NCBI GenBank assembly: GCA_963736895.1
Contig: CAVTQU010000008.1
Coordinates: 119,920 to 183,919 of the forward strand
Source: an uncultured Chloroflexia bacterium
GTDB taxonomy: Bacteria; Chloroflexota; Limnocylindria; Limnocylindrales; CSP1-4
Length of the DNA: 64,000 bases
Reading direction: 5' to 3'
Positions 1-32,289 of this stretch are shown here, piece by piece. The position numbers and the translations under genes were made by a program. Position 1 is the stretch's first letter; the number at the start of each line of letters is the position of its first letter. The notes under the pieces were generated by a model. It made no database searches. It saw only the letters and a program-made list of their open reading frames with translations, and was not told the origin of the DNA.

Positions 1-141
1 GACCTGATGGTGCAGCGGAACGGGGCCGGGTCGGAGCAAGAAGGGTGCTCTCGCCAAGTGGCTCCCCAGGCTACGAATGCCGATGATGCCGACCGGGATT
101 CGGGGTTGTCAGGCCCGCGATTGCTGATAACGTTATAAGCA

Positions 142-1446
142 ATGTCAAGCCCATCGGCAGCCACTCCGGCGGCGTCGATAAAGGTCGCGGTGATCGGCGG
201 CGGCAGCACCTATACGCCCGAGCTCATCGAGGGCATCGCGCATCGCAACGACCGCCTTCCGGTGGACGAGCTGGTCCTCATGGATCTGAACGCGGAGCGT
301 CTCGAACTGATTGGCGGCCTGTCTCGGCGGATCATGAGCCGACTCGGTTGGCAGGGCCGCATCACGACCACCCTGTCGCGCGACGAGGCAATCGACGGCG
401 CGACATTCGTACTCGTGCAGCTGCGGATTGGCGGCCAGCAGGCAAGACTGACCGACGAGACGGTCCCTCCCCAATTCGGCACGATCGGGCAGGAAACCAC
501 CGGCGCCGGCGGCTTCGCCAAGGCGCTGCGGACCGTGCAGCCCGTCCTGGAGCTGGGCGAGCTGACTGGTAGACGAGGCGCGCCCGGAGCTTGGCTGGTC
601 GACTTCACCAACCCCGTTGGGATCATCACCCAGGCGCTGCTGGATGCCGGCCACCGGGCCGTGGGTCTGTGCAACGTGGCAATCGGCCTCCAGCGCCGAC
701 TGGCCGCCCGCTTCGGAGTCGAGCCCGAGGACGTCCAGCTTGGCCACGTTGGCCTGAACCACCTGACGTGGGTTCGCCACGTGTGGGTGGACGGCGAGGA
801 CCGGCTACCAGCTTTGCTCGACGAGGCCGCCGAAGACATGGCCGATGAAGCCGGCGGCATGCCCGTTGAGCTGGTTCGCATCCTGAAAGCCGTCCCTTCG
901 TCCTACCTTCGTTACTACTACTGCTTCAACGATGTCCTGCGCGAGCAGCAGGCGGGCGAGCAGACGCGCGCCAACGCGGTGATGGACATCGAGAACCAGC
1001 TGCTCGAGCTGTACAAGGACCCGAACCTCGATACGAAGCCAGCCTTGCTGGAGAACCGCGGCGGCGCCTTCTACAGCGAGGCAGCCGCGCAGCTCATGGC
1101 GTCACTGCACGATGGACGCGGCGACGTCCAGGTGGTCGACACGCGAAACGACGGCGCGATCGCCGACCTGCCCGACGACGCTGTGGTCGAAGTCCCGGCA
1201 CGCATCGACCGGGACGGACCGCACCCGCTGCCCGCCGCCGAGCTGACCCCCGAGATGCGCGGCCTCGTCCAGCACGCCAAGGCCTACGAACAACTGGCGG
1301 TTGAGGCGGCCGTGACCGGAGACAGGGACGTGGCCCTGCGGGCGCTCATGGCGAACCCGCTCGTGGGCCGATATGACATCGCGCGGCCACTCCTCGATGA
1401 GCTGCTGCGCATCAACGAGGCTTACCTGCCGCAGTTCAACCGCTGA
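142..1446 (+). CDS. Glycoside hydrolase family 4, NAD-dependent 6-phospho-beta-glucosidase / alpha-glucosidase type
   Basis: 434-aa intact ORF. N-terminal KVAVIGGGSTYTPELIEG Rossmann motif is typical of GH4 (CelF/BglT-like); length fits the family. Confidence 0.85.
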   Translation: MSSPSAATPAASIKVAVIGGGSTYTPELIEGIAHRNDRLPVDELVLMDLNAERLELIGGLSRRIMSRLGWQGRITTTLSRDEAIDGATFVLVQLRIGGQQARLTDETVPPQFGTIGQETTGAGGFAKALRTVQPVLELGELTGRRGAPGAWLVDFTNPVGIITQALLDAGHRAVGLCNVAIGLQRRLAARFGVEPEDVQLGHVGLNHLTWVRHVWVDGEDRLPALLDEAAEDMADEAGGMPVELVRILKAVPSSYLRYYYCFNDVLREQQAGEQTRANAVMDIENQLLELYKDPNLDTKPALLENRGGAFYSEAAAQLMASLHDGRGDVQVVDTRNDGAIADLPDDAVVEVPARIDRDGPHPLPAAELTPEMRGLVQHAKAYEQLAVEAAVTGDRDVALRALMANPLVGRYDIARPLLDELLRINEAYLPQFNR

Positions 1447-1641
1447 GCCGGTTGCGGCCGTGGCCACGAACGGTTAGGCGACGACTCCTATGGCGAAGTT
1501 GGCTGCGTAGCCGCTCCCTGCGCGTGCTGGCGCGAGCACGAGCTCGCTGCTGAAGACGCCGTCGTTGGCGTTGGTGGTGTCCTGCGTTCCCCGCCCCGAG
1601 TAGGGCGTCTGGGCGAGCTAGACCCCGCCTGTGAATCGCGA

Positions 1642-2739
1642 TTAAAGAAGCGAGCCGAACAACCTCTCGTTGACCATCACCGCGTAGCGGTCGGTCATGC
1701 CCGCGACGTAGTCCACCACCTGGGTTGTCAGGTCGGCTTCGCTGTCGCGGTAGGTCGTGGGCAGCTCGTCGGGGTGATCCAGGTGGTAGTCGACCAATCG
1801 CCTGATCAAGGCGACCGCGGGCTCGGTGTGGATGCGCTGCTCCGGCGAGAGATAGACGCGCTCGAACATGAACTGGCGCAGCTCGATCATCACCTCGAGA
1901 GTCGGCGGATCCATCCGCACCTCGCCCGTTCTCAGGCTCTCGTCGATGACGGCGGTGATCATCTCTTCGATCCACTCTCGCCCTGGAGGTCCGAACCGCT
2001 CCAGCGCTCGCGATGGAAAGTCACCTGGTGAAAGGACACCGGCGCGCAGCGCGTCAAGCGCGTCGTGGGTGAGGTACGCGATGCGATCGCCGTAACGGAC
2101 GGTCATCGCCTCGGGCGTGGCCGGCGGAGGCTTGACCTTCCACGAATGGGCTCGAATCCCGTCGCGCACCTCCCAGGTCAGGTTGAGGTTCTCGAGGATG
2201 TCGAAGATGCGCACGCTCTGGGCGGCGTGGTGCCAGCCGATCCCCGGGAAGTACGGGGACAGCGCCTCTTCGCCGGTGTGCCCAAACGGCGAGTGCCCGA
2301 CGTCGTGGCCGAGCGCGATTGCCTCTGACAGCGACTCATTGAGGCTCAGCGCGGCGGCGATCGATCTTGAGATCTGCGTGACCTGCAGGGTGTGCGATAG
2401 CCGGGTAATGAAGTGATCGCCGTCGGGGTTGATGAAGACCTGCGTCTTGTGCTTCAACCGGCGGAACGCCTTCGAGTGGAGGATGCGGTCACGGTCGCGC
2501 TCGAACGCGGTTCGAAACTCATCCGGTACCTCGGGCCGGGCACGGCCGCGTGAGCTTGCGGAGCGCGTCGCAGCGGGTGCCAGACGCTCTTCCTCTGCTT
2601 CGCGCGCGAGCCGGTCGCGACGCACCAGGTTCGCCGTCTTCGGCGGCGATTGAACTCCCATCAGGAGCACATTCTCGGCGTCCGGGCTTACCCGTGGGTT
2701 ACTCGTCGGTAATCCGTTGCACGACGCGGAAGTACTCAC
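1642..2739 (-). CDS. dgt: dGTP triphosphohydrolase-like HD-domain phosphohydrolase (dGTPase family)
   Basis: FERDRDRILHSKAFRRLKHKTQVF followed by HD motif (LGHDVGHSPFGH). An internal Met (MGVQSPP, about 2661) may be the true start and would remove the overlap with the upstream ASCH gene. Confidence 0.85.
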   Translation of the reverse strand: MSTSASCNGLPTSNPRVSPDAENVLLMGVQSPPKTANLVRRDRLAREAEEERLAPAATRSASSRGRARPEVPDEFRTAFERDRDRILHSKAFRRLKHKTQVFINPDGDHFITRLSHTLQVTQISRSIAAALSLNESLSEAIALGHDVGHSPFGHTGEEALSPYFPGIGWHHAAQSVRIFDILENLNLTWEVRDGIRAHSWKVKPPPATPEAMTVRYGDRIAYLTHDALDALRAGVLSPGDFPSRALERFGPPGREWIEEMITAVIDESLRTGEVRMDPPTLEVMIELRQFMFERVYLSPEQRIHTEPAVALIRRLVDYHLDHPDELPTTYRDSEADLTTQVVDYVAGMTDRYAVMVNERLFGSLL

Positions 2740-3127
2740 ACAGGATCAGCGTCTCGTCGATGATCTCGTGCTCCGACCAGAAACGCTCGTGGGCGGCGCG
2801 CCAATCGGCGACCGATTCGAAGCCCTCGCCCTCGTCGCGCGCGAACTGCAGGCTCACGTCTCCGGCCGGAACCAGCTTGGCGCTCGTTGTTTCGACGACC
2901 GCGACTGGTTCGTCGTCATAGCCCAGCATCATCCAGCGATCGCCGGCCTTGGGCAGCGGCTCTTCCGTGTGCGGGGCGAACTCGCTAGCCAGACCTGCCG
3001 TGGCGATCTTGTCGCCGCGCAGGACGGCCTCGACAAGCTTCCGTCGCAGGTCGGTTCGCGGATAGCCCAGGCCGAACGGCGGGAGCTCGGGAATTGGCGG
3101 CCGCTTGGGCGGCCGGTCGTCGGTCAC
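2699..3127 (-). CDS. ASCH-domain protein (small RNA-binding-like fold), function unknown
   Basis: C-terminal ~140 aa resemble ASCH/YqfB-like proteins. Likely start is GTG at 3127, overlapping the stop of the upstream methyltransferase gene (GTGA overlap). The longer ORF-track N-terminus is probably not coding. Confidence 0.5.
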   Translation of the reverse strand: MTDDRPPKRPPIPELPPFGLGYPRTDLRRKLVEAVLRGDKIATAGLASEFAPHTEEPLPKAGDRWMMLGYDDEPVAVVETTSAKLVPAGDVSLQFARDEGEGFESVADWRAAHERFWSEHEIIDETLILCEYFRVVQRITDE

Positions 3128-3780
3128 GCGCCGGTCATGTCCAACTTCGTGGCGACGATGTAGCAGCGCTGGCTCTGGAATTCGATGTCCGGGTATGGCG
3201 GTCGGACCACCGATGACTCGATCTGGAATCCTGCGGCCCCCAACAGACGCGTGATCAGGTCGGCCTCCAGGAACCGAAAGTCGAGCACGACTGGCATTTC
3301 CCACCACTGTTCGCGACGCAACACCTCGTCGCCGACGTGGAAAGCGAGCGCCAGGCGGCCGTCGTGGCGCAGAACGCGGGCCATCTCTGCGAAGGCGGTC
3401 GCGAGCTGCGCATCGTCGAAATGGATGATCGAGTAGAAGGCGATCACACCGCCCAGGCTTCCGTCGGCGAAGGGCAACGCCAGCATGTCGCCGACGACGA
3501 CCTTGACCGTCGGGAAGAGACGGCGGGCCTGCTCGACCATCTGCGGCGAGAGATCGAGGCCGCTGATGTCGACGCCGCGACTGGCGATGTACGCAGCCAC
3601 GTGAGCCGGGCCGCAGCCGAGCTCCACGATATGACCCTTGCCCATGACCGACTCCGCGAAGTTCTCCAGGAACTGGCGGTCGAACGGCTTGTTGTCCAGC
3701 TCGTTGGCGATCTCGTCGGCGTATTTGCGCGCAACGGTGTCATACGTGGCGCGCGTGTCTTCTTCGCGGAAAGTAATGGT
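3124..3780 (-). CDS. Class I SAM-dependent methyltransferase
   Basis: Motif I ELGCGPAH, then typical MTase fold. The reading frame stays open and protein-like (TITFREEDTRATYDTVARKYADEIANELDNKPFDRQFLENFAESV) for 45 codons upstream of the ORF-track ATG at 3645. No canonical start lies between 3646 and 3780, so the start is unresolved (CTG/ATT, or a local indel). Confidence 0.75.
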   Translation of the reverse strand, partial: TITFREEDTRATYDTVARKYADEIANELDNKPFDRQFLENFAESVMGKGHIVELGCGPAHVAAYIASRGVDISGLDLSPQMVEQARRLFPTVKVVVGDMLALPFADGSLGGVIAFYSIIHFDDAQLATAFAEMARVLRHDGRLALAFHVGDEVLRREQWWEMPVVLDFRFLEADLITRLLGAAGFQIESSVVRPPYPDIEFQSQRCYIVATKLDMTGA

Positions 3781-5309
3781 CAGCCTCCGCCGCCGACTGG
3801 GCCCGTCGGGCGCTTGTAGCCCTCCGGCATACGCGGCTCGAACTTGAAGCCGCCGGCCACGCCAGGCTCGGTGAGCTCGTGTGGGTCGAGGATCTGGTTG
3901 ACCTCATCCTCGGTGAAGACGCCGCGCTCAACGACCAGCTGGCGAATCGTCTTGCCGGTGGCGACTGCTTCCTTGGCGATGTCGGCGGCGAGGGCATAGC
4001 CGATGTAGGGCGCCAGCGGCGTCGCCATGGCCGAGGACTGCTCGAGCAGCCACGCCGACCTCTCGACATCGGCTTCGATACCGGCCACGCATTCGCGTGC
4101 GAACTGGCGGCAGCCTGTGGTCAGGATCGTCAGCGACTCGAGCACCTCGTGGGCCATGATCGGCATCATCACGTTGAGCTCCAGCTGGCCGCGCGAGGCG
4201 GCCCAGGCGACAGTCGTGTCGGCGCCGATCACGTGGTACGAGATCATTGCCAGGTTCTCGACCATCACCGGGTTCACTTTGCCGGGCATGATCGACGAGC
4301 CCGGCTGGCGAGCCGGCAGCTTGATCTCGGCAAAGCCGGTGCGCGGTCCGGAGGACATGAGAAGCAGGTCCTCGCAGATCTTCGCCAGGTCCACAGCCAG
4401 CCCGCGAAGCGCGGCGGAAACGGCGAGCATCGGGGCCATCGATTGCGTGGCATGGACGAGTTGCTCCGCCGGTCGAAGCTGGTGGCCCGTCTGTTCGGAC
4501 AGTATCTGGACGACCAGTCGGATGTACTCGGGTTCGGCATTCAGGCCCGTCCCGACGGCCGTCGCGCCGATGTTCTGTTCCAGCAGTCCGTCCGCGGCCG
4601 CGCCAATCGCGTTGCGAGCGCGGCGAATGGTCAGCGCGTAGGCGCTGAACTCCTGTCCCAGCCGGATCGGCACCGCGTCCTGCATGTGCGTGCGGCCCGA
4701 CTTGAGGACGTTGTCGAATGCCACGCCGCGCTCCGCGAACGCATCCGCGAGCTCGTCCAGAACGGGGAGCAGCTCCTCAACGCGATCCAGAGTCGCGATG
4801 CGCATGGCTGTCGGGAACGTGTCGTTCGTCGACTGGGCCATGTTCACGTGGTCGTTGGGGTTCACGACCGAGTAATCGCCGCGCTGCCCGCTGCCGAAGC
4901 CGGAGCTGGCAAGAATCTCGATCGCCCGGTTGGCCAGCACCTCGTTGGTGTTCATGTTGTGGCTGACACCAGCGCCGGCCTGGAAGGGATCGACGCGAAA
5001 GTTGTCGATCAGTGTGGCCTGTCGGACCCGGCCTTCATCGGTGGTCGAATCGAGCGCCAAACCAAGGATTTCGTCCGCCGCCTGGATAATCGCTGCGGCA
5101 ATGTGCGGCTCCAGCCGTCCCGTCTGGCCGTTAGCCCGCGCGGCGGCTTTCTTGACCTGCACTGCGGCGCGGACCAGCGCGATGTCCGGCCGCCGGCCGC
5201 TGATCGGGAAGTTGTTGATCGCCCGCTGCGTCTGGACGCCGAAAAAGGCGTCAGCCGGAACCTCGAGCGGGCCAAGAGGATCCTTTTCAGTTCGTGTGCC
5301 CTCACTCAT
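3780..5309 (-). CDS. aspA: Aspartate ammonia-lyase / class II fumarase family enzyme (closer to aspartase)
   Basis: 509 aa. Fumarate-lyase signature GSSIMPGKVNP. The N-terminus and the QLELNVMMP region resemble AspA more than FumC (judged from remembered sequences). Unusual Gly-rich C-terminal tail ...PTGPVGGGG. Confidence 0.85.
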   Translation of the reverse strand: MSEGTRTEKDPLGPLEVPADAFFGVQTQRAINNFPISGRRPDIALVRAAVQVKKAAARANGQTGRLEPHIAAAIIQAADEILGLALDSTTDEGRVRQATLIDNFRVDPFQAGAGVSHNMNTNEVLANRAIEILASSGFGSGQRGDYSVVNPNDHVNMAQSTNDTFPTAMRIATLDRVEELLPVLDELADAFAERGVAFDNVLKSGRTHMQDAVPIRLGQEFSAYALTIRRARNAIGAAADGLLEQNIGATAVGTGLNAEPEYIRLVVQILSEQTGHQLRPAEQLVHATQSMAPMLAVSAALRGLAVDLAKICEDLLLMSSGPRTGFAEIKLPARQPGSSIMPGKVNPVMVENLAMISYHVIGADTTVAWAASRGQLELNVMMPIMAHEVLESLTILTTGCRQFARECVAGIEADVERSAWLLEQSSAMATPLAPYIGYALAADIAKEAVATGKTIRQLVVERGVFTEDEVNQILDPHELTEPGVAGGFKFEPRMPEGYKRPTGPVGGGG

Positions 5310-5339
5310 CCATTCGAGTGTACGGCGCAGACTCAGGCC

Positions 5340-6668
5340 TCAGTTGGCAGGCTCGACCGCGTACCACAGCTCACGCGGCTGACTGTCGCCGTCTCCCACA
5401 CCGAACAAGATATGTGGTCGCCCGTGTGTAGCTACGGCCAGGGAGAGCGGGACGTAGGGATAGTTCGGCGCGGAGGAAACCTGATCTGACACGAAGCTCC
5501 CTGAGGCATTCGACCAGTGCCAGACCCCATCGACTCCAACGGATGCCAAGTGGATCGTCCCGTCCGCAGCCGCAGCGATTTCTCGGGGATTTTGGTCCTC
5601 CACGAGTTCAATCGGCTCAATCCATCCGTTTGCGTCACGCGTCGAAATGAATAAATCACTAACCTCAAGGATGTCGTCGTAGTTGTGATACAGGACGTGG
5701 GACCGTCCCGTTGCATCGGTTGCCAGGTCATCAAGGTAGTCGTAGTTTGCCTTCGTACCCGGAACCGGCTCGAGCGCGAAATCCTCTTTTCGGCTCGCGA
5801 GATGGATGCCGGTTTCGCCTAGCAGCCCGCACTGATCGTTGGCCGCAATCAATGGCGTCCCGTCCGCTGCCAGAGCAAGGTCGAAGTTCTCACTGCTTCG
5901 TACTGCTCTGGACTTGATCCACTCACCCGTCTCGTTCGTTGCATAGGCAACCGGGCTGAACTCGTCGCATGCCGTGTCGTCCCCCTCGAAGTCGGCGTAT
6001 GCCACGTGGAACACGCCGTGCCGATAGGCGAGCTGAGGATTAAGCCCCGGGCCGATGCCTACCGGTACCTCCCAGGCCGCGGAGGTGTAGCGCGCGACGT
6101 AGATTTCGATGCCGTAACAGCCCATGATGCTGCACCCGGCGCGCGAAAAAGCCACGGCCACGGACCCAGAATCATCGATCGCGATCGATGGACCGCCATC
6201 CTTGATGCTTCCCTCGGGAGGGATGCCGAATCGCTCGCGCGTCCACTTTCCAGTCGCATTGGTCAGGTAAACGAGTCCGCGATTGTCGCTCAGGACGGCG
6301 TGAACGCTGCCCTCCGGGTCGACCGCCATCGAAACGGTGTTGAAGCTTCGATCCCAGACCTGAGTGAGCTCCCACAAGGACGTGGCCGTTTGGGTCGGGA
6401 TCGAACTCGGCGAAGTACTCGGAGTCGCGCCCAGGGACACGGTCGGACTTGGCGAAGCGGTCTGGGTAGGGCTGACCGTCGCCGTTTCGATGGGAGGTGC
6501 ACTCTGGAACGCGCTCGGCGTGGCTGTCAGTGAGGCAGTTGGTTGACTCGTTGACTGTGCGACGGGTGTTCCCGTGGCGGGTGGTGCTGGAGTCGTTGAG
6601 ATCGGCGGCGTGCCGACAGGCGCGGCACAGCCGACGATTAGGACGGCGACGAACGCAAAGGCGTGCAT
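5340..6668 (-). CDS. Lipoprotein with Pro/Thr-rich linker and repeated ~40-aa blades (predicted beta-propeller); paralog A
   Basis: Signal peptide plus lipobox LIVGC, ~90-aa PT-rich linker, then six or more repeats of the form TxxxGxWxx...DGxxHhhY. The probable start (MHAFAFV, ATG at 6668) overlaps the stop of the upstream paralog (ATGA). Confidence 0.6.
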   Translation of the reverse strand: MHAFAFVAVLIVGCAAPVGTPPISTTPAPPATGTPVAQSTSQPTASLTATPSAFQSAPPIETATVSPTQTASPSPTVSLGATPSTSPSSIPTQTATSLWELTQVWDRSFNTVSMAVDPEGSVHAVLSDNRGLVYLTNATGKWTRERFGIPPEGSIKDGGPSIAIDDSGSVAVAFSRAGCSIMGCYGIEIYVARYTSAAWEVPVGIGPGLNPQLAYRHGVFHVAYADFEGDDTACDEFSPVAYATNETGEWIKSRAVRSSENFDLALAADGTPLIAANDQCGLLGETGIHLASRKEDFALEPVPGTKANYDYLDDLATDATGRSHVLYHNYDDILEVSDLFISTRDANGWIEPIELVEDQNPREIAAAADGTIHLASVGVDGVWHWSNASGSFVSDQVSSAPNYPYVPLSLAVATHGRPHILFGVGDGDSQPRELWYAVEPAN

Positions 6669-8056
6669 CACAGCGGCGGCCCGACGAGATACCACAACCC
6701 TTCCTCTCCCTCGTCATACGGCGTGGAGAAGAAGACGTGCGGCCGCCCGAGATGGTCAACGGTGATCACCTGCGGCGGACTCGGTGCGTCATAGGCGAAA
6801 CGAGCAGAGTCGTCCAGGTGACGCGAATCGGAAGCCTCATTCGAGAGGCTCGCATACCAGAGCCCTTCATCGGAGAACTTCTCCAGCTCATGCAGCTCGT
6901 ACACGACATGCAGGGCGCCAGATGGACCGAACGCGGCGTCATCCAGGTTGCTGTCGGCGACTTGCTCCGGAGAACTCCATTCGGGCCCTTCAAGGCGAAT
7001 CGCGTATGCGCGGTACCCATGTCGTTCCTCCCACTGGTCGAAGATCACCACCGGGCGGTCGAGAGGATCGATCAAGAAGGCATCGATGCCGCCGTCGGTG
7101 TCCATATCCAGCGGTACTTCTGCCGTGCTGAGCTCATCTCCCTGTGGTGATGAGATGAATGCGCCGCCAAGGTCACCGCCATAAGCAATCCACGGAGTTC
7201 CATCCGACGCTACCTCGATCCCCGACGGGTTACCGCTTCCAATGTCGTGGATCGTCCACTGGTCAGATGGATTCGTTGCGTAGTACAGAGACGTCTCCTG
7301 TCGAGCGCGATCGAACGTACTGAAGGCCGCGTGCAGTACGCCGTCATGAACTGCGAGCAACGAACCTTGTCCCATCGGGTCGGGGAGCTTCACGGGATCT
7401 GACCAGGAACCGCCGACATTGTTGGTCACGTACTGGCCGTCATATCGACTGTGCGGCCGAGGACATTCGAATCCGCAGGGGTTGTAGAACGACCAGCGCG
7501 TGTAGGAGAACCAGAGAGAACCATCTGTGTCGACGCCGGCCCATACGAGTCCATCGGTTCCCTCGGCGGGTGGCTGGGTAAGTTGGTCTTCGCTCCAGGT
7601 TCCGCCCGAATTCGTCAGATGAACGATTCCCTCACCGCGATGGTCTGTCGAACCGAAGAGCTGCAGATTTCCCGTGGTGTCCACGATCGCCACCATTCCC
7701 CACGGAACGGTGTCGGAGATCCGGACCGCGTCTGACCACTTTGCTGTCAGTGCAGGGGTGGCTGTTGGCGGTACGGGTGTCTCAATTGGTTCTGGCGTAG
7801 GGATGGGCGTCGGGTCGGGTGTTGAGGTACGAATTGGCGGTTCAGGAGTGGCCGAGGAGCTCGGTGTAGCCACGACAGCGCCGACCGTGGCCGTAGCTAC
7901 CGGCGTGGCAGTTGCCGGCGCGACTGATTCAGCGGCGGGGCTGATTGTCGTAGTCGGTGTCGGTGTCTGTGACGGCGCCGATCCGATTGCGCAGCCCGTG
8001 AATGCAAGCGCGAGGATCAACAGTACGGACTTGTGACGGTCGCCTCGTGTGGGCAC
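6668..8056 (-). CDS. Lipoprotein with Pro/Thr-rich linker and beta-propeller-like repeats; paralog B
   Basis: Signal peptide plus lipobox AFTGC, PT-rich linker, and the same repeat architecture as 5340..6668 (GGTWSED, GGSWSDP, DGTPWIAY...). Confidence 0.6.
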   Translation of the reverse strand: MPTRGDRHKSVLLILALAFTGCAIGSAPSQTPTPTTTISPAAESVAPATATPVATATVGAVVATPSSSATPEPPIRTSTPDPTPIPTPEPIETPVPPTATPALTAKWSDAVRISDTVPWGMVAIVDTTGNLQLFGSTDHRGEGIVHLTNSGGTWSEDQLTQPPAEGTDGLVWAGVDTDGSLWFSYTRWSFYNPCGFECPRPHSRYDGQYVTNNVGGSWSDPVKLPDPMGQGSLLAVHDGVLHAAFSTFDRARQETSLYYATNPSDQWTIHDIGSGNPSGIEVASDGTPWIAYGGDLGGAFISSPQGDELSTAEVPLDMDTDGGIDAFLIDPLDRPVVIFDQWEERHGYRAYAIRLEGPEWSSPEQVADSNLDDAAFGPSGALHVVYELHELEKFSDEGLWYASLSNEASDSRHLDDSARFAYDAPSPPQVITVDHLGRPHVFFSTPYDEGEEGLWYLVGPPL

Positions 8057-8119
8057 TCGAGTGTTCTCCTGCGGCCCCCCAAACCCCGGGCGATCGTAGC
8101 CGGGCTGGCCCGATTTCCA

Positions 8120-8151
8120 TTACTGATTCGATTACTGATTCAGCTACTGAG
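8120..8151. repeat. Tandem 12-bp direct repeat, about 2.6 copies (TTACTGATTCGA / TTACTGATTCAG / CTACTGAG)
   Basis: Seen directly in the 170-bp intergenic region upstream of the lipoprotein-B start and downstream of the small secreted gene. Confidence 0.7.
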
Positions 8152-8228
8152 TGCGGGAGTGGAAACGCGTGATGAGGCCCGCCCCTTGCGGGACGAGCCT
8201 CTCGGAGGTGACCGACGGGGGGCGTCAG

Positions 8229-8483
8229 TCAGCGCTCAAAGCAGAAGTACTGCATCGCCTGGCCGGGGTTCGCCTGCTTGCCGTCGGGATGCGCCCAACC
8301 CCAGGTCGAGTTGGGGCCACCCATCGGATCGTCGGTCACCGATGCCACGAATTTGACGACCGGCCCGACGCTCCCTTCGCACTGGCCTGGCGACGCTGTG
8401 GCAAAACCGGGAACCATGGCCGCGGTCAGCATGCCGGCAGCAAGGGCGATAGAAAATCGCTTCTTCGAGATCCTCGAGAACAT
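8229..8483 (-). CDS. Small secreted protein (84 aa, signal peptide, 2 Cys), unknown function
   Basis: N-terminal signal peptide (SIALAAGMLTAAMVPGFATA); coding-like composition. Confidence 0.4.
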   Translation of the reverse strand: MFSRISKKRFSIALAAGMLTAAMVPGFATASPGQCEGSVGPVVKFVASVTDDPMGGPNSTWGWAHPDGKQANPGQAMQYFCFER

Positions 8484-8528
8484 GCCCGTCTCCTTTGATT
8501 GCTGGTCGAATGTGTTGTGGGTGGGTGA

Positions 8529-9047
8529 TCAGAGACCAAGGGCCTCGATCATGATCTGGCAGTAGAGATCCGTTTCCGACACCAGGAACGGATGCGGTCC
8601 GCCAATTACTACGACATCGGTGCCGAGGTAGTTGTCGCTGGCGTCGAAGTGGTCGTAGAAAGCGACTCGACCCACGTCGTGGCCAAGCAGGCCGCCGCCG
8701 ACCTGCCGCAGCTGCAGGGGCTGACCAACCCGAAAAGTAACGATGGTGTACGCACCATTGCCATCGTCGATGAACGCGAGCTTGCCACCGCCGGAGAAGC
8801 TCTCGACGACGCCGGCGCCGTTGACGGGGTTCGTCCACGTTCTGGCGATGTGGCCGAATGCCCTGTCGTCCCACCCGTTGAGGACGCCTTTGAACGTTAC
8901 ATCGACAGCCTCACCGGTGCCGCAAAAGTTTGGATCTGTGTCGGTTCCATTGAGCGTTTGGTGATCGGGGCCTGCAGCGAGGACCGATCCGACGCCCAGC
9001 GTTAGCACAAGAACGGCGCCGAGGGCGAGCGAAATCAACGAGCGCAT
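8529..9047 (-). CDS. Secreted protein of unknown function (signal peptide)
   Basis: MRSLISLALGAVLVLTLGVGSVLAAG signal peptide; Gly/Asp-rich mature region. The true start is probably the internal Met at 9047. Confidence 0.45.
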   Translation of the reverse strand: MRSLISLALGAVLVLTLGVGSVLAAGPDHQTLNGTDTDPNFCGTGEAVDVTFKGVLNGWDDRAFGHIARTWTNPVNGAGVVESFSGGGKLAFIDDGNGAYTIVTFRVGQPLQLRQVGGGLLGHDVGRVAFYDHFDASDNYLGTDVVVIGGPHPFLVSETDLYCQIMIEALGL

Positions 9048-9141
9048 GCGGACAGCTCCTTCCAATTGGTGAGTCAGATTTGGGTAGACGGAGTGGAGCC
9101 TGCTTACTCAGCCGGCGACGCTCGCGCGCAGTTGGTGACGT

Positions 9142-10428
9142 TCATTTCGGCAACGGGCGCCAGTTGGCGGTGCCCGAAATCGAGATTGGCAGCGTCGCGG
9201 CCGACTCCGGATTTTCCAGCGGAATGACCACGAGGTGGTCGCAGCTATTGGCCGATCCGCCGTACAGCTCCGCACCGTCTGACGACCAATCGACCCAGCA
9301 GCTTGCAATTGATCCGAGGTCTCTGACCGCACCGTCGTAAGGCGGAAGCGAAGGGTCGAAGTCAGCCACGATCACGTCCCCGTCGGCCGAGAGAAAAGCA
9401 ATCTGCAATCCATCTGGCGATAGCGAGACGCCCCAGTCGGGCACGCCTCCGACACCGTCGGACCAAATCGAGTTGCCATGCCCTGTCCCAGCGTCAAGGA
9501 CAACCTGGCTCGGCGTGCCAAAACCCGGCTGCATGGCATATCCGATTTCCTGGTCGAAGTCAGGGTCCGGGAAGAAACGGGGTTGCGAGAAGTGAGCATC
9601 GGGCGCTATCAGGCCGGCGCGCTCCACATCGTTCGTCCCATCCGGGGTTATCGGATAAATCGTGTGCAGGTCTGTGTGGATTCCATCCTTATCGGTGGAG
9701 CGGTACACGATCGTCTGGCTGTCGGGAGACCATTCGGGCAGGTCCGCCTTGGACGGACCGCTGGTGATGGGCTCGATTGCTCCGCCGTCGGCGTCATCGT
9801 CAGCTATGAAGATCCTGGAGACACCCTGATCCTCGGCCGCGAAGGCGATCCTGGAGCTGTCGCCAGACCACGAGAAGTTGGGGACATCTGTCGCCATCAC
9901 TGCCTTGCCCTGGCTGGCCTGCACCCGTTGTGACGTCCCGTCGACCGACTCGATCATCAGCCGCCCTACACCGGCGCCCGGACCATCCAAGGCCAGGTAC
10001 GCAACGCGCGTCCCGTCCGGCGAGAACACAGGTGTCGTGGCATACGACCCGGTTGTGCTCACCTGTTTGGGGTCCGATCCGTCCGGCTGCGCGACGTAGA
10101 TCACGCCGCCGTCCGCAAAAGCGATCACGTCGTCAGATGGCGCGAGGACCAGCGGGGGATGCCAGATGCGTCCTCCAAAGGCAACGGCCAAAACCACCAG
10201 AGCGAGGAGCGTCAGGACCAGCAGCAAAGCCAGAGCGGCCTGTCGCGGAATCCGCACATCAACATCAGCAGCGGGTCCTGGCAACCACCGCTGAGGGAAG
10301 CGCCATGCAGCCTTCTGCTCGACCTTATGAACAGCCGCCAGCGCGCGGTTGCGTCCGTGCTCCGATCCCCGCTCCGGACCGTCGCCGAGCCATTGCGCGA
10401 TAACCGGGTCAAGTTGCATGTCGTTCAT
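9142..10428 (-). CDS. Membrane anti-sigma factor with periplasmic TolB-like (PD40/WD40-like) beta-propeller domain
   Basis: Short cytoplasmic N-terminus, one TM helix (ALALLLVLTLLALVVLAVAF), then repeated SPDG/WSPD blades (VFSPDGTRVAY, WSGDSSRIAF, EWSPDSQTIVY, SLSPDGLQIAF). Its ATG overlaps the stop of the upstream ECF sigma (ATGA). Confidence 0.7.
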   Translation of the reverse strand: MNDMQLDPVIAQWLGDGPERGSEHGRNRALAAVHKVEQKAAWRFPQRWLPGPAADVDVRIPRQAALALLLVLTLLALVVLAVAFGGRIWHPPLVLAPSDDVIAFADGGVIYVAQPDGSDPKQVSTTGSYATTPVFSPDGTRVAYLALDGPGAGVGRLMIESVDGTSQRVQASQGKAVMATDVPNFSWSGDSSRIAFAAEDQGVSRIFIADDDADGGAIEPITSGPSKADLPEWSPDSQTIVYRSTDKDGIHTDLHTIYPITPDGTNDVERAGLIAPDAHFSQPRFFPDPDFDQEIGYAMQPGFGTPSQVVLDAGTGHGNSIWSDGVGGVPDWGVSLSPDGLQIAFLSADGDVIVADFDPSLPPYDGAVRDLGSIASCWVDWSSDGAELYGGSANSCDHLVVIPLENPESAATLPISISGTANWRPLPK

Positions 10429-10983
10429 CGCGATCGTTCCCCGAGCGCGTCGACTGGCGCCACCGGCGTTGACTTCAGCGCGGCTCGCATCGCACGGATA
10501 CCGCGGTGCAGCCGCGAATAGACAGTTCCAATCGGTATGCCGAGTGCCTGACTCACCTCCGGTGCGGACATTCCCACGTAGTGCGTGAGAACCAGGACGG
10601 CACGTTGCTCCACAGGCAGTTGCAGGAATCCCCGCTCGAGCTCATCAACGTTCACCACCGTTGCGTAGTCGTCGGCGGGATCGCTGTGATCTGCCGAGAT
10701 ATCCGCCACCTCAACCTCGAAGCGTCGGCCCTTCCTGGATTGGTCGTGGCACGCGTTGACGAGAAGCCGGTAAATCCAGGCCTCGAATCGCTCGGGGTCT
10801 CTCAGCGAGCGGAGATCTCGCCAGCCGCGAATCAAGTGCTTCCTGGACCACGTCCTCGGCCGCATATCCGTCGCGGAGGATTCGTCGCCCGATCGCGTAC
10901 AGGCGGTCGTACATGCCGATCGCCAAAGCGTCGAAGGCGTCTCGGTCCCCTGCCTGAGCGCGCTGGACGAGATCCGTCCTCAC
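10425..10983 (-). pseudogene. ECF (sigma-70 family) RNA polymerase sigma factor, apparent single-base frameshift
   Basis: N-terminal region-2 part sits in frame 10711..10983 (VQRAQAGDRDAFDAL...AEDVVQE). C-terminal region-2/4 part sits in frame 10425..10865 (IRGWRDLRSLRDPERFEAW...GTVYSRLHRG). The break is at about 10838, where CTTGATT replaces an expected CTGATT, compared with the intact paralog at 12961..13518. Confidence 0.7.
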
Positions 10984-11062
10984 AGGTCCCCTTGGTGATA
11001 CGCGGGCCGGATGCCCCCGCCTATGAAGTATGGCGTCGAGGACAGGCCGAATCCTTCCCGGT

Positions 11063-11095
11063 CACGGAAAGGGCGCCCGGGGGGAACCGGGCGCC
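11063..11095 (-). terminator. Rho-independent terminator-like hairpin (GGGCGCCCGG-TTCCCC-CCGGGCGCCC then TTTCC)
   Basis: Perfect 10-bp inverted repeat read on the minus strand, immediately downstream of the small secreted gene 11118..11411. Confidence 0.5.
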
Positions 11096-11117
11096 CTGCA
11101 AGGAGGAGTTCTGGGCG

Positions 11118-11411
11118 TTAGACGCCAAGTTCGAACGCCGTTGCCTCCACGACGAGCGTCATCGAATCCCCGAACCAGGTGAAGCCAAACCAGGCCTCAG
11201 GTCCGTGTGCCATGGCACCCGCCACCACGCTGTTTGGATACTCCTCGTAGGTCGGCACGACCGCGTTGTAGCCGTTCGCCTGGAGGGTGTACGAACCCCA
11301 TTGCTGCGCGGCCGCAGTCGCTGGGCCGTCGGGAGCAACACAACCGGGCGTTGCCAAGAACGTGTTCAGGGCAATCAGGATCATCGAGCACATGGCTATC
11401 TCCTTTAACAA
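11118..11411 (-). CDS. Small secreted protein (about 90 aa), unknown function
   Basis: Signal peptide (MCSMILIALNTFLATPGCVA), aromatic-rich mature part. Lies between the two sigma/anti-sigma loci. Confidence 0.4.
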   Translation of the reverse strand: MLKEIAMCSMILIALNTFLATPGCVAPDGPATAAAQQWGSYTLQANGYNAVVPTYEEYPNSVVAGAMAHGPEAWFGFTWFGDSMTLVVEATAFELGV

Positions 11412-11599
11412 GGCTTGCGAGAGCAGGCTTGATAGGCATGGCGCCGTCGGGCAGTACAGGGCAGCGCCAGGCAGGTCTCGGCGAGAGCGCCAAGACGGCG
11501 GATCAAGACGTTGGGATATGGATGTCGGACGAGTGGCCGGCGGGGGCTAGCCGGGAGGTGACCTCGGGCTGGCGCGCGCGCAGTTCACCGCGGGCGAGC

Positions 11600-12960
11600 T
11601 CATGGCTGGGAAGCCTCCGGTGGCTGCGACTCCCCGGGTGGCCGGGACGCCTCCGGCTGGGATCGCCAGCTTGCAGCGCCGGTGATGATCATCGGCAGGG
11701 TTTCGGCAGCCGTGGGATTGGCGAGCGAAACCACAACGATGTGGTCGCAGGAGCCAGGCGAGCCGCCGTACAGGCTCTGGCCATCCGGTGACCATGCCAC
11801 CCAGCACTCGATCACCTTTCCGAGGTGCGGAGCATCGCCGTTGTAAGGGTGAGCAGATGAAGTGAAGCCAGAGTCGAATTCAGCAACGACCACGCCATCG
11901 TCCGTGAGCATCGCCACCAGGCTCTTGTCCGGCGACCAGGGAATTCCCTGTTCGTTGTCGCTGACGACACCGGTATCTGGCAGCGCGCCTTGAGGTCCGG
12001 TGCCCGTGTCGAGGAAAGCCTCCGTATCGGCGCCGAACCCGACATTCAGCGCATAGGAAAGGACCGTCGTCCCCACGTACGCCGGCAACATCACGGGCCC
12101 CCACAGAGGTCGTGAGATGCTGCCGTCGGCCGCGACGATTCCGGTCCTCACCACGTCGCCGGTGCCGAGGTTATCTGCCACTCCTGCGTCCGGGTGGATC
12201 TGGCGGATATCGGTGTGAAGGCCGTCGTCGTTTCTCCGTCGGTATGCGATCAGGGTCCCGTCCGCGCTCCAGTCGGGCAGGTCGGCTGACACGGAACCGT
12301 CAGTGACTGGCTCGAGCGAGCCGCCGCCAGCGGCGACGATGAACAGCTGTGCCGCTCCGTCCTTCGTGGCGGAGAAGACAAGACGAGTGCTGTCCCCGGA
12401 CCACGAGAACTGATTGGTTTCAGACGGCGTGAGAACCAGGCCGCCGCTGACGTTGATCGGCGGCGCTGAGCCGTCGAAAGGTACGACCATGAGTAGACCG
12501 TCCAGCGAGCCAGCAGCGGCGGGCGCCGTGAAGGCGATCATCTTGCCGTCAGGCGAGAAGACGGGCGTGCGGCCAAACGGAACGCCGCCACTCACCTTAC
12601 GCTGCCTCCGATCCGTCGCGCGCCGCGACGGTGATCGAGTCTTCATCCTGGATAGACGAAGACGTCACCAGATGGCCCAACTGGAAGCAGGTTGCGACGC
12701 GAGCCGACAAACGCCACCGCCAGAGCCAGCAGCAACAGAAGCGTTAGTGCCACCAGGACGCCGATGCGAGCCACGGTCGACGGTCGTCCATCCAGGCCAA
12801 CCAATGGGCTGGGCAGCCAGCGCTCCGGGAACGTCCAACCGGGCCGTTGCGACACGGACTCTGCGGCGACCAATGCGTTGGCCAAGCCCTCGCGAGGCGC
12901 GGCTTCCACATCATCGTTGAGCCAGGCCATCACCACGGGATCGAGGCGATCGCTAGTCAT
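11600..12960 (-). pseudogene. Anti-sigma factor with TolB-like beta-propeller (paralog of 9142..10428). Fused in frame to the upstream sigma and broken by about two frameshifts near 12590..12650
   Basis: The anti-sigma N-terminus (MTSDRLDPVVMAWLND...TM helix) continues in the sigma frame. The propeller (VFSPDGKMIAF, WSGDSTRLVF, DWSADGTLIAY, WSPDGQSLYG) sits in a second frame (ORF 11600..12646). A third frame supplies a DEDSITVAARDGSEAA segment. Confidence 0.6.
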
Positions 12961-13518
12961 CGAACGTTCTCCGGTACAGGTGATTCCGGCTATGTCGAGT
13001 TCTGAATTGGACAGCGCGGTGCGCATGCTGCGGACGCCGTAGTGGAGCCGCGAATAGACGGTCCCAACGGGAATGCCCAGGATCTGACCCACCTCGCTGG
13101 CCGGCAGGCCGACGTAATGAGTCAGGACCAGGACCGCGCGATGCCCTACGGGGAGCTTGAGGAAGGCTCTTTCCAGCTCGTCACGTTGTGCGACGCGCGC
13201 GTAGTCGTCTGAGGGATCAGGTCGATCAACATCGATCTCCCGCACCTCGACGGCGAAGCGACGACTGCTCCGCGACTGGTCGTGACACGAGTGGACCAGC
13301 AAGCGATGAAGCCAGGCGTCAAATCGAGCTGGGTCGCGCAGGGAGCGCATGTCTCGCCAGCTGCGGATCAGGGTTTCCTGGACAGCGTCCTCCGCCAAGT
13401 GGCTGTCCCGCAGGATGCGACGTGCGATGCCGTACAGGCGCTCATAGGCAGCTGTCGCGAGCGCCTCGAAGGCCTCCCGATCACCTGACTGAGCCCGTAC
13501 GACGAGTTCGGACGTCAC
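12961..13518 (-). CDS. ECF sigma factor (intact sigma domain); reads through in frame into the anti-sigma N-terminus
   Basis: Regions 2 and 4 complete (VVRAQSGDREAFEAL...LHYGVRSMRTA). Locus 1 has TCGCGATGA (stop overlapping the start); this locus has TCGATGA. The 2-bp difference removes the stop and fuses the sigma to the anti-sigma. Confidence 0.7.
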
Positions 13519-13563
13519 TGCCGATCCTCACGTCTGCGCGGGTATCTCCCACGCTCACTGAGT

Positions 13564-14397
13564 ATGGCGTTCGGCTCAGGCCCAATCCTTCAGGCCGTCG
13601 GAACAATGACCGCTGCGCATCTACAATCGGCCGCGATGCACGAGGCACCCGTACAACCTCAGCTCCCCGCCCTGCGGCCGCCGGATCAGCCGACCCTGTC
13701 CACGAGCGAGCCTGAGATCAAGGAGCTGTTCCGCTTCATGACCGAGGCGGAGCTGCGCGTCGAAACGCTGCGTATGCGGATCGTCGACCGGCGAACGACC
13801 ACCCACGGCGACGAGGTGGAGACGCACGACGTGTCGCTTCGTCACCCCGGGCTCGCGAAAGTGATCAGCACTCGCGGTCAACCGATGGATCACGACTACG
13901 ACGTGTGGGTTTCGGAGGGTGAGTCGGTTCACACCTACGACGCCAAGGGCAACACGGCGACCAACAGGCGACTTCCTGTTCGCCCGGTTGGGGCGGACGC
14001 TCCCGATCTGCCGTGGTTCGCCAAGATCTACGTCCCGGTGACCACTCTGCCGGCTGAAACGCTTGCCGACACGTTCGTCCACCCGAACGGCTTCTGCCGC
14101 AACGTGCTGTTGACCGGTGTCGTGACCCGCCGCGGCACGCAGGAGCTGGCCAACGGTCGCGAAGCCATCCTGCTGCGCTGCGACCATCCGCGGACCAGCC
14201 ACGTGCTTACCGACCGTCCCGACCACTGGCTGGAGGTTGGCGTCGACACGCAGACGGGCATCATCACGTTGCTGGCCGAGCACATTGGCGACCAGACGAC
14301 TCGCCACGCCGAGGCAGTAACCATGGCCATCGACGAGACGATCCCCGACGACGTGTTCCGGCTGCACATCTCGAGTGACACCCGCGTCCTCTATTGA
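13564..14397 (+). CDS. Hypothetical protein, divergent from the ECF sigma. Possibly a LolA/RseB-like fold (speculative)
   Basis: 277-aa ORF with coding composition. No motif I can name confidently. Start may be a downstream Met. Confidence 0.4.
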   Translation: MAFGSGPILQAVGTMTAAHLQSAAMHEAPVQPQLPALRPPDQPTLSTSEPEIKELFRFMTEAELRVETLRMRIVDRRTTTHGDEVETHDVSLRHPGLAKVISTRGQPMDHDYDVWVSEGESVHTYDAKGNTATNRRLPVRPVGADAPDLPWFAKIYVPVTTLPAETLADTFVHPNGFCRNVLLTGVVTRRGTQELANGREAILLRCDHPRTSHVLTDRPDHWLEVGVDTQTGIITLLAEHIGDQTTRHAEAVTMAIDETIPDDVFRLHISSDTRVLY

Positions 14398-30079: not shown

Positions 30080-31346
30080 TTAGTTGGTTACAGCGGCGGT
30101 CGGGCGCGCGAACAGCCTCTCGACTTTGTTTAGCGCCTCGGCCAGGCGGTCGATGTCATCGCGATCGGTGTAGATGTAGAAGCTGGCGCGGGCACTTGCC
30201 TCCTCGCCGAGTCGCTGGTGGAGCGGCATCGTGCAGTGGTGGCCGGCGCGGACCGCGATTGCTTCGCGGTCGAGGAGCGTGGCCACGTCATGTGGGTGGG
30301 CGTCTGCGAGATTGAAGGTGACGATGCCGGCACGGTCGCTCGCAGATAGCGGACCATGGATGCGGATGCTGGGCACTTCGCGCGGCAGCATCTCCAGCGC
30401 GTATTCGATGAGATCGTGCTCGTGGGCACGGACGTGCTCCATGCCGATGTCCGTCAGGTAGTCCAGCGCCGCGCCCAAGGCCGATGGCCGCAGCGATGTC
30501 CGGCGTGCCTGCCTCGAACTTGTAGGGCACCTCGTTGTACGTCGTGTGCCGCAGGTGTACCTCGCGGATCATCTCGCCACCGCCCATGAACGGCGGCATC
30601 TCCTCGAGGATCTCGCGGCGCGCCCAGAGCGCGCCTGAGCCTGGCGGTCCCAGCGTCTTGTGGCCGGAGAATACGAAGAAGTCGCAGTCCAGGTCCTGGA
30701 CGTTGACCGGCTGATGAGGCGCCGCCTGGGCGCCGTCGACGAGCACCAGAGCGCCAGCCGCATGCGCCTTGGCGACCATCTCCTTGACCGGATTGATCGT
30801 GCCGATGCCGTTGCTCACGGCGGTGAAGGCGACCAACTTGGGCTTCGTACGCAGCAGGGCCTCAAAGCTGTCCTGGTTGAGCCGCCCGTCCTCGTCGAAC
30901 GAGATGAACTCGAGGTCCGCGTCCTTCTCCTGGGTGAGCATCTGCCACGGAATGATGTTGGAGTGGTGCTCCATCTCGGTGGTCACAATGGTGTCGGCCT
31001 TGCCGATGTTGCGGCGTCCCCACGCGTAGGCAACGAGATTGATTGCCTCGGTCGCGTTGCGCACCATGATGATCTCGCGTGCGTCGCTGGCGCCCAGGAA
31101 CGTGGCGATCTTGGAGCGAGCGCCCTCGTAGGCGGCCGTGGCTTCCTCGCCGATCTCGTAGATCCCGCGATGGACGTTGGCGCTGTAGCGGTTCATGTAC
31201 TCGCTCATCGCCTCGGCAACGACGCGCGGCTTCAGTGCCGTTGCGGCGCTGTCGAGGTAGGCCATCTTGCGGCCGTTGAAGTCGCGGTCGTAGATCGCGA
31301 AGTCCGCGCGGGTCGCGACGGGGTCCAGCGCCGGGACGATGGCCAT
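30080..31346 (-). pseudogene. sufS: Cysteine desulfurase SufS (group II, PLP-dependent), apparent 1-bp frameshift at about 30475
   Basis: N-terminal 330 aa in frame 30288..31427 (SGHKTLGPPGSGALW PLP-Lys region). C-terminal 130 aa in frame 30080..30478 (RAGHHCTMPLHQRLG, catalytic-Cys loop). An extra G in the GGG run (CTTGGGCGCGGCG) separates them. Confidence 0.8.
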
Positions 31347-31371
31347 CAGCTGCTCGCTCCTTGTACCTGGC

Positions 31372-32289
31372 TCAGTGGGCTTCCGCTTCGGGGGGCTCGG
31401 GCGCATCGGGCTCGTCTTCGAAGGCAAGCTCCAGACCTGCCTCTTTCAGGATCGGAGCGTAGCCCTCTTCCTCGAGTCGGACCGCCAGCTCGCGTCCTCC
31501 GGACGCCACGATCTGGCCCTGCGCCAGGACGTGCACGACGTCAGGGGTTATGTAGTTGAGGATGCGCTGGTAGTGGGTGATCAGCAAGACCCCCAACTCG
31601 GGGCTGAGCTGGGCGTTCACGCCCTCGGCGACGATGCGCAGCGCGTCGATATCCAGGCCGCTGTCCGTTTCGTCGAGGATCGCGATCTCCGGCTGCAGCA
31701 CGGCCATCTGGAGCATCTCGAGGCGCTTCTTCTCGCCACCCGAGAAACCCTCGTTGACGTAGCGGGCGGCAAAGCTGTCGTCGAGCTTGAGTAGCGCCAT
31801 CTTCTCGCGGAGCAGCCGGCGGTAGTCGCCCATCGAGATGCCGCCGCGGGTCATGTCCGACGGGTCGATATCGGTGTTGACCGGCTTGTCGAGCGGGCGC
31901 ATCCGTGCGTTGAGGGCGGTGCGCAGGAAACTGGCGACGCTCAGCCCGGGGATGGCCGTCGGGTATTGGAACGCCAGGAAGATGCCGGAGCGACCGCGCT
32001 TGTCGGGGCTCAGCTTGAGCAGGTCGCGGCCCTTCCACAGGACCTCGCCGTGCGTTACCTCGTAGGCCGGGTGACCCATCAGCGCATAGGCGAGAGTCGT
32101 CTTACCTGAGCCGTTGCGACCCATGATCGCGTGGACCTCGCCCTTGCGGACGGTGAGGTTGATGCCGCGCAGGATCTCGCGTTTTCGGTCAGCGACCGGA
32201 ACCACGTGCAGGTCCTTGATGACCAGCTCACGGTCGTCGTCTGATTCGCTCGTCGTGGCGTTGGCTGGTGCGTCGATTGTCTGGGTCAT
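31372..32289 (-). CDS. sufC: Fe-S cluster assembly ATPase SufC
   Basis: GRNGSGKTTL Walker A, SGGEKKR, ILDETDSGLD; about 260-aa core with an N-terminal acidic extension. Start overlaps the Rrf2 stop (ATGA). Confidence 0.9.
   Translation of the reverse strand: MTQTIDAPANATTSESDDDRELVIKDLHVVPVADRKREILRGINLTVRKGEVHAIMGRNGSGKTTLAYALMGHPAYEVTHGEVLWKGRDLLKLSPDKRGRSGIFLAFQYPTAIPGLSVASFLRTALNARMRPLDKPVNTDIDPSDMTRGGISMGDYRRLLREKMALLKLDDSFAARYVNEGFSGGEKKRLEMLQMAVLQPEIAILDETDSGLDIDALRIVAEGVNAQLSPELGVLLITHYQRILNYITPDVVHVLAQGQIVASGGRELAVRLEEEGYAPILKEAGLELAFEDEPDAPEPPEAEAH

Follow-up and report, generated by a model that had tools for sequence, protein, structure and literature searches.

A TolB-like anti-sigma factor has been demonstrated experimentally in Thermoanaerobacter tengcongensis, where Tt-RpoE1, a sigma factor of the extracytoplasmic function (ECF) type, is paired with Tt-TolB (Liu et al. 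2012, PMC3397946). Residues 1-39 of Tt-TolB bind the sigma factor in the yeast two-hybrid system, residues 39-61 form a transmembrane (TM) helix and the remainder of the protein is TolB-like and extracytoplasmic (PMC3397946). Fusions of a sigma factor to its anti-sigma factor are also known, namely IutY/ECF243 of P. putida, SCO4117 and some ECF36 members (PMC8999054). Here we analyzed two adjacent gene pairs on the minus strand of contig CAVTQU010000008.1 from an uncultured Chloroflexia bacterium, each composed of an ECF sigma factor gene and a gene for a putative anti-sigma partner carrying a PD40 beta-propeller (sigma 1 and partner 1, module 1; sigma 2 and partner 2, module 2; Table 1). All positions refer to the 64,000-nucleotide stretch of this contig which was analyzed (the window). 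As assembled, module 2 reads as a sigma/anti-sigma fusion. A preliminary description of the window had implied that the locus was novel, which the precedents above do not bear out, and we consider it probable that the locus comprises two ordinary ECF sigma/anti-sigma operons, duplicated long ago, from a Chloroflexia-like bacterium of soil.

The window modules resemble Tt-RpoE1/Tt-TolB in architecture and gene order, with an ECF sigma gene followed by a gene for a protein made up of a short N-terminal domain, a TM helix and a TolB-like part, and the window sigma factors are putatively autoregulated as is Tt-RpoE1. The systems differ in that Tt-TolB is a protein of 645 amino acids (aa) from Firmicutes whereas the window partners are Chloroflexia-like and 428-452 aa in length, in that the Tt genes lie 2 bp apart whereas the window genes overlap by ATGA, and in the promoter, which reads tGTTAC-N16-CGTC for Tt and GAAGGAWT-N13/14-ACGCCATAC in the window. 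In the canonical pairs RpoE-RseA, SigW-RsiW, SigK-RskA and SigL-RslA, as in the window, a two-domain sigma factor is joined at position +1 by a co-transcribed partner spanning the membrane and has a putative autoregulatory ECF promoter. Unlike these pairs, the window partner has a cytoplasmic domain of about 50 aa with no match to class I or zinc-binding anti-sigma (ZAS) models and no zinc-binding motif, and a PD40 propeller as sensor. The main text of Casas-Pastor 2021 makes no mention of PD40, WD40 or TolB partners. PD40 beta-propeller repeats are common to the window partners and TolB of the Tol-Pal system. TolB proper differs, however, as its model TIGR02800 scored 58 bits on a window partner against a cutoff of 343 and matched at profile positions 173-298 only, and the partner is without the TolB N-terminal domain, sits in the membrane with a cytoplasmic N-terminus and has no tol or pal genes nearby. 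Assignment of the partner as TolB proper was rejected on the basis of this propeller-only match and the lack of tol-pal context.

Membership of the sigma factors in the ECF family was borne out, since they contain sigma-2 and sigma-4 domains only and score above the cutoff of the superfamily model. Sigma 2 matched the Pfam families Sigma70_r2 (1.7e-14) and Sigma70_r4_2 (2.4e-9) and scored 89.2 bits with the NCBIfam model TIGR02937 (cutoff 42.9), and the solved structures nearest to it by sequence were M. tuberculosis SigE, B. subtilis SigW and M. tuberculosis SigL. Sigma 1 as assembled is split between two open reading frames (ORFs), 10983..10711 and 10865..10425 (-), with Sigma70_r2 spanning both and r4 in the second, and the C-terminal piece scored 51.7 bits with the same superfamily model. 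PD40 matches were obtained for partner 1 (E=1.8e-11), to which the database protein P0001 is identical, and for partner 2 (7.5e-14). Between the two modules the sigma factors share 63% and the partners 43% identity, with synonymous divergence (dS) saturated. The preliminary description of two paralogous modules, the first with a frameshifted sigma gene and an ATGA overlap, was therefore confirmed, although its statement that one of the modules was intact is inexact as the sigma gene of module 1 is frame-broken too.

Two relatives provided the intact form of the locus. One, L007, is a 148-kb ENA contig collinear with positions 19512 to 6769 of the window, and the other, L002, is a short JGI contig. 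Both modules of L007 are intact and have ATGA overlaps, with a 186-aa sigma factor, a 448-aa partner and the small ORF in one module, and the second sigma factor with a 422-aa partner in the other, followed by a homolog of the 178-aa secreted protein found 3' of module 1 in the window. L002 contains an intact module 2 ortholog in which a 186-aa sigma factor and a 440-aa partner overlap by ATGA, followed again by the small ORF. Every one of the nearest orthologs of sigma 2 (88-92% identity) is a separate protein of 186 aa. Since both modules are already present in L007, and given the saturated dS of the window paralogs, the sequence comparison indicates that the two-module arrangement is ancestral and not a recent duplication.

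Conservation along the locus was uneven. Sigma 1 shares 85% identity with its L007 counterpart, against no more than 47% for partner 1. For sigma 2 the identity is 91% with L007 and 63% with L002, but the propeller of partner 2 is about 85% identical to that of L002, and is thus nearer to L002 than the entire partner 2 is to L007 (74%). Such mosaic conservation is suggestive of recombination or of an exchange of sensor domains between related lineages, and recombination may exchange the sensors faster than the sigma factor evolves. Two tandem sigma-partner modules of the same family were also observed in L006, a contig of an Anaerolineaceae metagenome-assembled genome (MAG), at 54..3670, so that tandem arrays are not confined to the Chloroflexia relatives.

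The lesions in the window were located by pairwise alignment with L007 as differences in coding regions which were not multiples of three. Four were found, in each case one additional base in the window sequence, at about 12981 (in the C-terminal tail of sigma 2), at 12652 and 12602 (in partner 2) and at 10833 (in sigma 1, where the window reads CACTT[G]ATT and L007 CACTT-ATC). Alignment with L002 independently placed the two partner 2 insertions at 12652 and 12602. None of the four sites has a homopolymer context. When the four bases are removed open ORFs of 186, 452 and 185 aa are obtained for sigma 2, partner 2 and sigma 1, with ratios of nonsynonymous to synonymous substitution rates (dN/dS) relative to L007 of 0.11, 0.30 and 0.19 respectively. 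The corrected partner 2 ORF is uninterrupted, is 80% identical to that of L002 and gave dN/dS of 0.24-0.30 over the two relatives.

In the uncorrected sequence a 291-aa ORF at 13518..12643 (-) encodes the complete ECF sigma factor (r2 and r4) in frame with the partner N-terminus and TM helix, reading through as ...GAACGTTCG ATG ACT... into the segment homologous to the partner N-terminus. The propeller part follows in a separate frame as a 348-aa ORF at 12646..11600 (-), preceded by two frame breaks. This much of the proposed fusion stands, although it is neither conserved nor demonstrably real. It had been attributed to a 2-bp difference at the junction, TCGATGA in module 2 in place of TCGCGATGA in module 1. 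Both strings are present but they do not cause the fusion, since the junction of intact L007 module 2, ...GAACGTTCGATGA / GTACCGGAGAACGTTCGATGA, is identical to that of the window (GAG AAC GTT CGA TGA, then stop) and the stretch GAGAACGTTCGATGA 3' of the site near 12981 is likewise the same in both. A 2-bp junction deletion was rejected as the cause for this reason. By alignment, the in-frame fusion reading comes from the extra base near 12981, about 20 nt upstream of the junction, and the difference between TCGATGA and TCGCGATGA is an old one between the paralogs. The natural stop of sigma 2 is the TGA in the ATGA overlap at 12959..12957. As assembled, the 291-aa ORF resembles the IutY/ECF243, SCO4117 and ECF36 fusions in that a sigma factor is joined to an anti-sigma-like segment and a TM helix. 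Those fusions, however, are conserved single genes with complete extracytoplasmic parts, whereas the window ORF is unconserved, is the product of one extra base and is ended by a frameshift. It does not fall among the natural fusions, as the orthologs are 186 aa long and the genes in L007 and L002 are separate and overlapping.

At least four genes of housekeeping type elsewhere in the window are frame-split too, as recognized from Pfam profile coordinates on paired ORFs (Table 1). The cysteine desulfurase of the suf operon, with NifU, a SufC-like ABC protein and an Rrf2 regulator as neighbors, is divided between two overlapping ORFs and probably contains a single-base insertion error. Between 19590 and 22092 the MerB-like, PNP_UDP_1 and IU_nuc_hydro genes are consecutive and all frame-split, a second local cluster of insertions or deletions (indels). 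Frame arithmetic on the profile coordinates suggests that most of the breaks in these other genes are again +1 insertions. The genome relatives which were recovered are solely MAGs named 'uncultured Chloroflexia bacterium MFD...' with Flye-style contig names. The MFD catalogue was built from Nanopore data only, by Flye assembly with one round of Medaka polishing, and its authors report Nanopore-associated errors in MAGs of lower coverage (PMC12313526). In two of the MFD MAGs (L003, L005) the partner genes are also spread across several frames. The database proteins P0171, P0206 and P0348 look like fusions, running from a sigma factor into a partner N-terminus and then into nonsense sequence. 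On reading, P0171, P0206, P0208 and P0348 were frameshifted or internally deleted calls from metagenome contigs.

The partners belong to a protein family, about 410-460 aa in length, that is characterized by the N-terminal motif DxxLxxWL...QRPGWTFPxRWLP, one TM helix and PD40 repeats. The conserved N-terminal module of about 50 aa lies directly before the TM helix, and the hydrophobic stretch at residues 62-85 or thereabouts is kept across the family. Single-TM topology was borne out, with AlphaFold2 predicting a helix at residues 248-274 of the 291-aa ORF (predicted local distance difference test, pLDDT, 93-95). An ECF sigma gene is located directly upstream of the partner gene in all 15 loci checked (16 modules), short-read assemblies included, which together with the PD40 matches makes the earlier proposal of propeller anti-sigma partners plausible. 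At each junction that was read or called the two genes overlap by ATGA or by 4 nt, with the exception of L001 where the overlap of the called genes is 23 nt. With a profile of only the N-terminal module, 146 representative clusters were recovered, in which the module is N-terminal except in P0309, P0348 (frameshift garbage on reading), P0369 and one repetitive 906-aa match. In P0274 and P0335 the module is joined to non-PD40 extracytoplasmic domains and the gene is still coupled to an ECF sigma gene by a 4-nt overlap. The module stays with the sigma factor when the sensor is swapped, and it is therefore the module, not the propeller, that travels with sigma. An ECF sigma gene followed by a gene for a module protein with a non-PD40 sensor (542 and 657 aa) was observed in L012, L013 and the P0335-bearing JGI 3300056388 contig, and in all three a Beta-lactamase-family gene comes directly after the module protein.

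Each of the 10 modules for which upstream DNA was available had a bipartite motif, GAAGGAWT-N13/14-ACGCCATAC, 5' of its sigma gene, with a variant -35 element (TGAAC) in L002 and L006. In its strict form the motif occurs at only two sites in the 64-kb window, 13591..13562 and 11057..11028, upstream of sigma 2 and sigma 1, and presumably represents an autoregulated ECF promoter. Of the four upstream regions that had been suggested for a search for shared ECF-type motifs, those of the sigma genes starting at 13518 and 10983 contained the motif and those of the lipoprotein genes starting at 8056 and 6695 did not. A further copy of the motif (GAAGGAATTGGTCCCTTCAAACGCCATAC) was observed in L004 (9321..10484) before a gene for a 342-aa secreted glycine-rich repeat protein with a twin-arginine-like signal, a candidate regulon member judging from this motif.

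Since L007 is intact with the same junction, removal of single bases restores the ORFs, other genes of the window are frame-split and the relatives are Nanopore-only assemblies, the fusion can probably be put down to the assembly. Errors in the consensus of a Nanopore-only metagenome assembly are the best explanation of the four frame disruptions and, in our judgment, the likely one, and if the insertions are such errors then a sigma/anti-sigma fusion would be absent from the organism. Two exact-pattern scans of JGI metagenome contigs around insertions 12652 and 10833, which sought an independent assembly of the same species, gave no match. We have to admit points which weigh against assembly error. 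Nanopore assembly is established only for the catalogue of the relatives. The four insertions are also confined to 2.2 kb, flanked by apparently intact stretches of about 6 kb (19.6-13.6 kb) and 5 kb, so that insertion density here is above the window average, though there is the second cluster at 19.9-21.7 kb. This packing of lesions beside intact neighbor genes would be understandable if the insertions were real and module 2 (sigma tail and partner) and sigma 1 were very recent pseudogenes, that is, decaying redundant ECF copies. Such a reading gains from the fact that ECF modules are numerous and often dispensable, from the quickly evolving and mosaic sensor domains at this locus and from the broken partner genes of L003 and L005. 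Nevertheless, with the four bases taken out the genes show neither nonsense mutations nor larger deletions nor a nonsynonymous excess (dN/dS 0.11-0.30), and both module promoters are intact. All four lesions are +1 insertions outside homopolymers and are therefore atypical of natural slippage, whereas natural decay is usually biased to deletions and slippage, and core-metabolism genes such as the suf-operon cysteine desulfurase bear the same type of lesion. We regard recent pseudogenes as unlikely, though they are the chief alternative to assembly error. Far less probable still, to the point of being barely credible, is that the 291-aa product is a genuine functional membrane-tethered sigma factor with its sensor severed, activated by proteolysis like IutY or ECF52-type fusions. 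The ORF is open and would encode a complete sigma factor, linker, N-terminal module and TM helix, and natural fusions occur in other ECF groups (PMC8999054). Against this, the nearest orthologs are stand-alone sigma factors and L007 has a stop codon at the same junction, the end of the ORF is a second frameshift and not a natural terminus, the downstream propeller frame is still under purifying selection and the look-alike fusions in the database are visibly frameshift artefacts. Phase variation or programmed frameshifting was rejected because the insertion sites are outside repeats and homopolymers.

With the fusion set aside as a probable assembly error, the role of the partner has to be weighed. 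It is plausible from gene order and domain composition that the partner is an anti-sigma factor having a PD40 beta-propeller as its sensor. A number of results speak against this assignment. The N-terminal region of about 100 aa had no Pfam or NCBIfam match (zf-HC2, RskA and RsdA-type included), the alignment of the partner family contained no HxxxCxxC or other Cys/His motif, and the profile of the N-terminal module searched against PDB sequences gave chance-level matches only (best E=1.6). Two AlphaFold2 runs on the 291-aa ORF had predicted template modeling scores (pTM) of 0.35-0.39 and no readable interface between sigma and module. In run 1 (sigma-only alignment) the N-terminal module had a pLDDT below 50, and in run 2 (mixed unpaired alignment, pTM 0.35) it reached about 50-74 with moderate helices. 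The lack of a recognized anti-sigma domain or PDB match, and of confident docking on sigma, would suit a PD40 membrane protein which is not an anti-sigma factor but a co-transcribed regulon member (e.g. an envelope-associated binding or peptidase-like protein), with the sigma factor controlled otherwise. The comparative evidence for the role is strong, however. The N-terminal module remains linked to ECF sigma genes when the extracytoplasmic domain differs (P0274, P0335), and the ATGA coupling, single-pass topology with the N-terminus inside and short cytoplasmic domain match Tt-TolB with its sigma-binding residues 1-39, so that we think a non-anti-sigma role improbable. As an anti-sigma pair, the system would consist of a two-domain ECF sigma factor translationally coupled by the ATGA overlap to a single-pass membrane partner, whose cytoplasmic module of about 50 aa would sequester sigma and whose extracytoplasmic PD40 beta-propeller would act as sensor. 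By analogy only, a signal at the propeller would release sigma, probably via proteolysis of the partner. We offer more tentatively, and with the odds against it, the suggestion that the module could be an undescribed class of short anti-sigma domain, widespread in uncultured Chloroflexota-like soil bacteria and with interchangeable sensors (PD40 propellers or others).

Table 1. Positions of the features described in the text, in window coordinates.
Feature	Position	Strand	Remarks
ECF sigma factor 2	12957..13518	-	186 aa after dropping the extra base near 12981; start GTG at 13518
Partner 2, putative anti-sigma factor (N-terminal module, TM helix, PD40 propeller)	11600..12960	-	452 aa without extra bases 12652 and 12602
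Extra-base site bringing sigma 2 in frame with its partner	12975..12990 (base ~12981)	-	window GCCGGAATCACCTGTACCGG; L007 GCCGGATTC-TCAGTACCGG
ECF-type promoter-like motif, module 2	13562..13591	-	GAAGGATTGGGCCTGAGCCGAACGCCATAC
Small conserved ORF	11118..11393 (alternative 11411)	-	~91 aa from ATG 11393, hydrophobic N-terminus; ribosome-binding site (RBS) AAGGAG 11405..11400
GC-rich hairpin	11066..11096	-	GGGCGCCCGG-TTCCCC-CCGGGCGCCC; perfect 10-bp stem 11096..11071, then TTTCC; read from the sequence
ECF sigma factor 1	10425..10983	-	185 aa without extra base 10833
Partner 1, putative anti-sigma factor	9142..10428	-	428 aa, intact; ATGA overlap with sigma 1 stop, in GAACGATCGCGATGAAC
ECF-type promoter-like motif, module 1	11028..11057	-	GAAGGATTCGGCCTGTCCTCGACGCCATAC
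Secreted 178-aa protein, 3' of module 1	8529..9065	-	same-position homologs: L007, 58% identity, and L005, 33%; without family match
Lipoprotein-like genes	5340..6695 and 6668..8056	-	distant paralogs (27% identity), lipoboxes, weak BNR_4-like matches
Conserved gene, 277 aa, divergent from module 2	13564..14397	+	no Pfam/NCBIfam match; homologs divergent from sigma gene in L002, L003, L005
MerB-like gene	20.1-19.6 kb, break near 19920	-	profile 1-45 and 61-125
PNP_UDP_1, purine-nucleoside phosphorylase-type gene	20.4-21.0 kb, breaks near 20420 and 20730	+	profile 36-125 and 135-215, different frames
IU_nuc_hydro, inosine-uridine nucleoside hydrolase	21.2-22.0 kb, break near 21640	+	profile 30-179 and 184-288
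suf-operon cysteine desulfurase (Aminotran_5)	31445..30080, break near 30470	-	profile positions 2-264 and 260-371 on two overlapping ORFs

A small gene followed by a terminator had been proposed between the modules. The ORF, its RBS and the 10-bp hairpin are present, and L002 and L007 retain the ORF 3' of their module 2 (aa identity 64-86%, dN/dS 0.16), with no family match in Pfam or NCBIfam. From its position and stem the hairpin is likely the terminator of operon 2, although a generic terminator scan did not list it because its T tail is short. The C-terminal end of partner 2 (11600..11660, -) is a Pro/Glu/Ala/Ser-rich repeat (PEASRPPGESQPPEASQP), part of which is a 36-nt insertion relative to L002, and a similar tail is found in L007.

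On the 3' side of module 1 the gene for the 178-aa secreted protein is possibly co-transcribed with the module, and the two lipoprotein-like genes beyond it agree with the flanking lipoproteins described earlier. On the other side of the locus the collinear position of the 277-aa gene in L007 is occupied by a 233-aa ORF (5123..5824, -) with no family match. The longest ORF of the window gene runs over the promoter motif of sigma 2, and its true start is therefore probably further downstream. The region 5300..13600 codes mostly for secreted proteins, lipoproteins and the ECF modules, has a GC content of 0.61-0.64 compared to 0.65-0.68 in the flanks and scores weakly under a codon-usage model trained on the long genes of the window.

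Biologically little is at stake, as the locus would add one more ECF sigma/anti-sigma system of the Tt-RpoE1/Tt-TolB type. It does illustrate that in Nanopore-only MAGs the 4-nt ATGA overlap makes a nearby single-base indel look like a gene fusion, and artefactual fusions of this kind are already in public protein collections (P0171, P0206, P0348). It is reasonable to view the N-terminal module as a candidate family of short anti-sigma domains in Chloroflexota that is as yet unclassified, which, if true, would be modestly useful for ECF classification.

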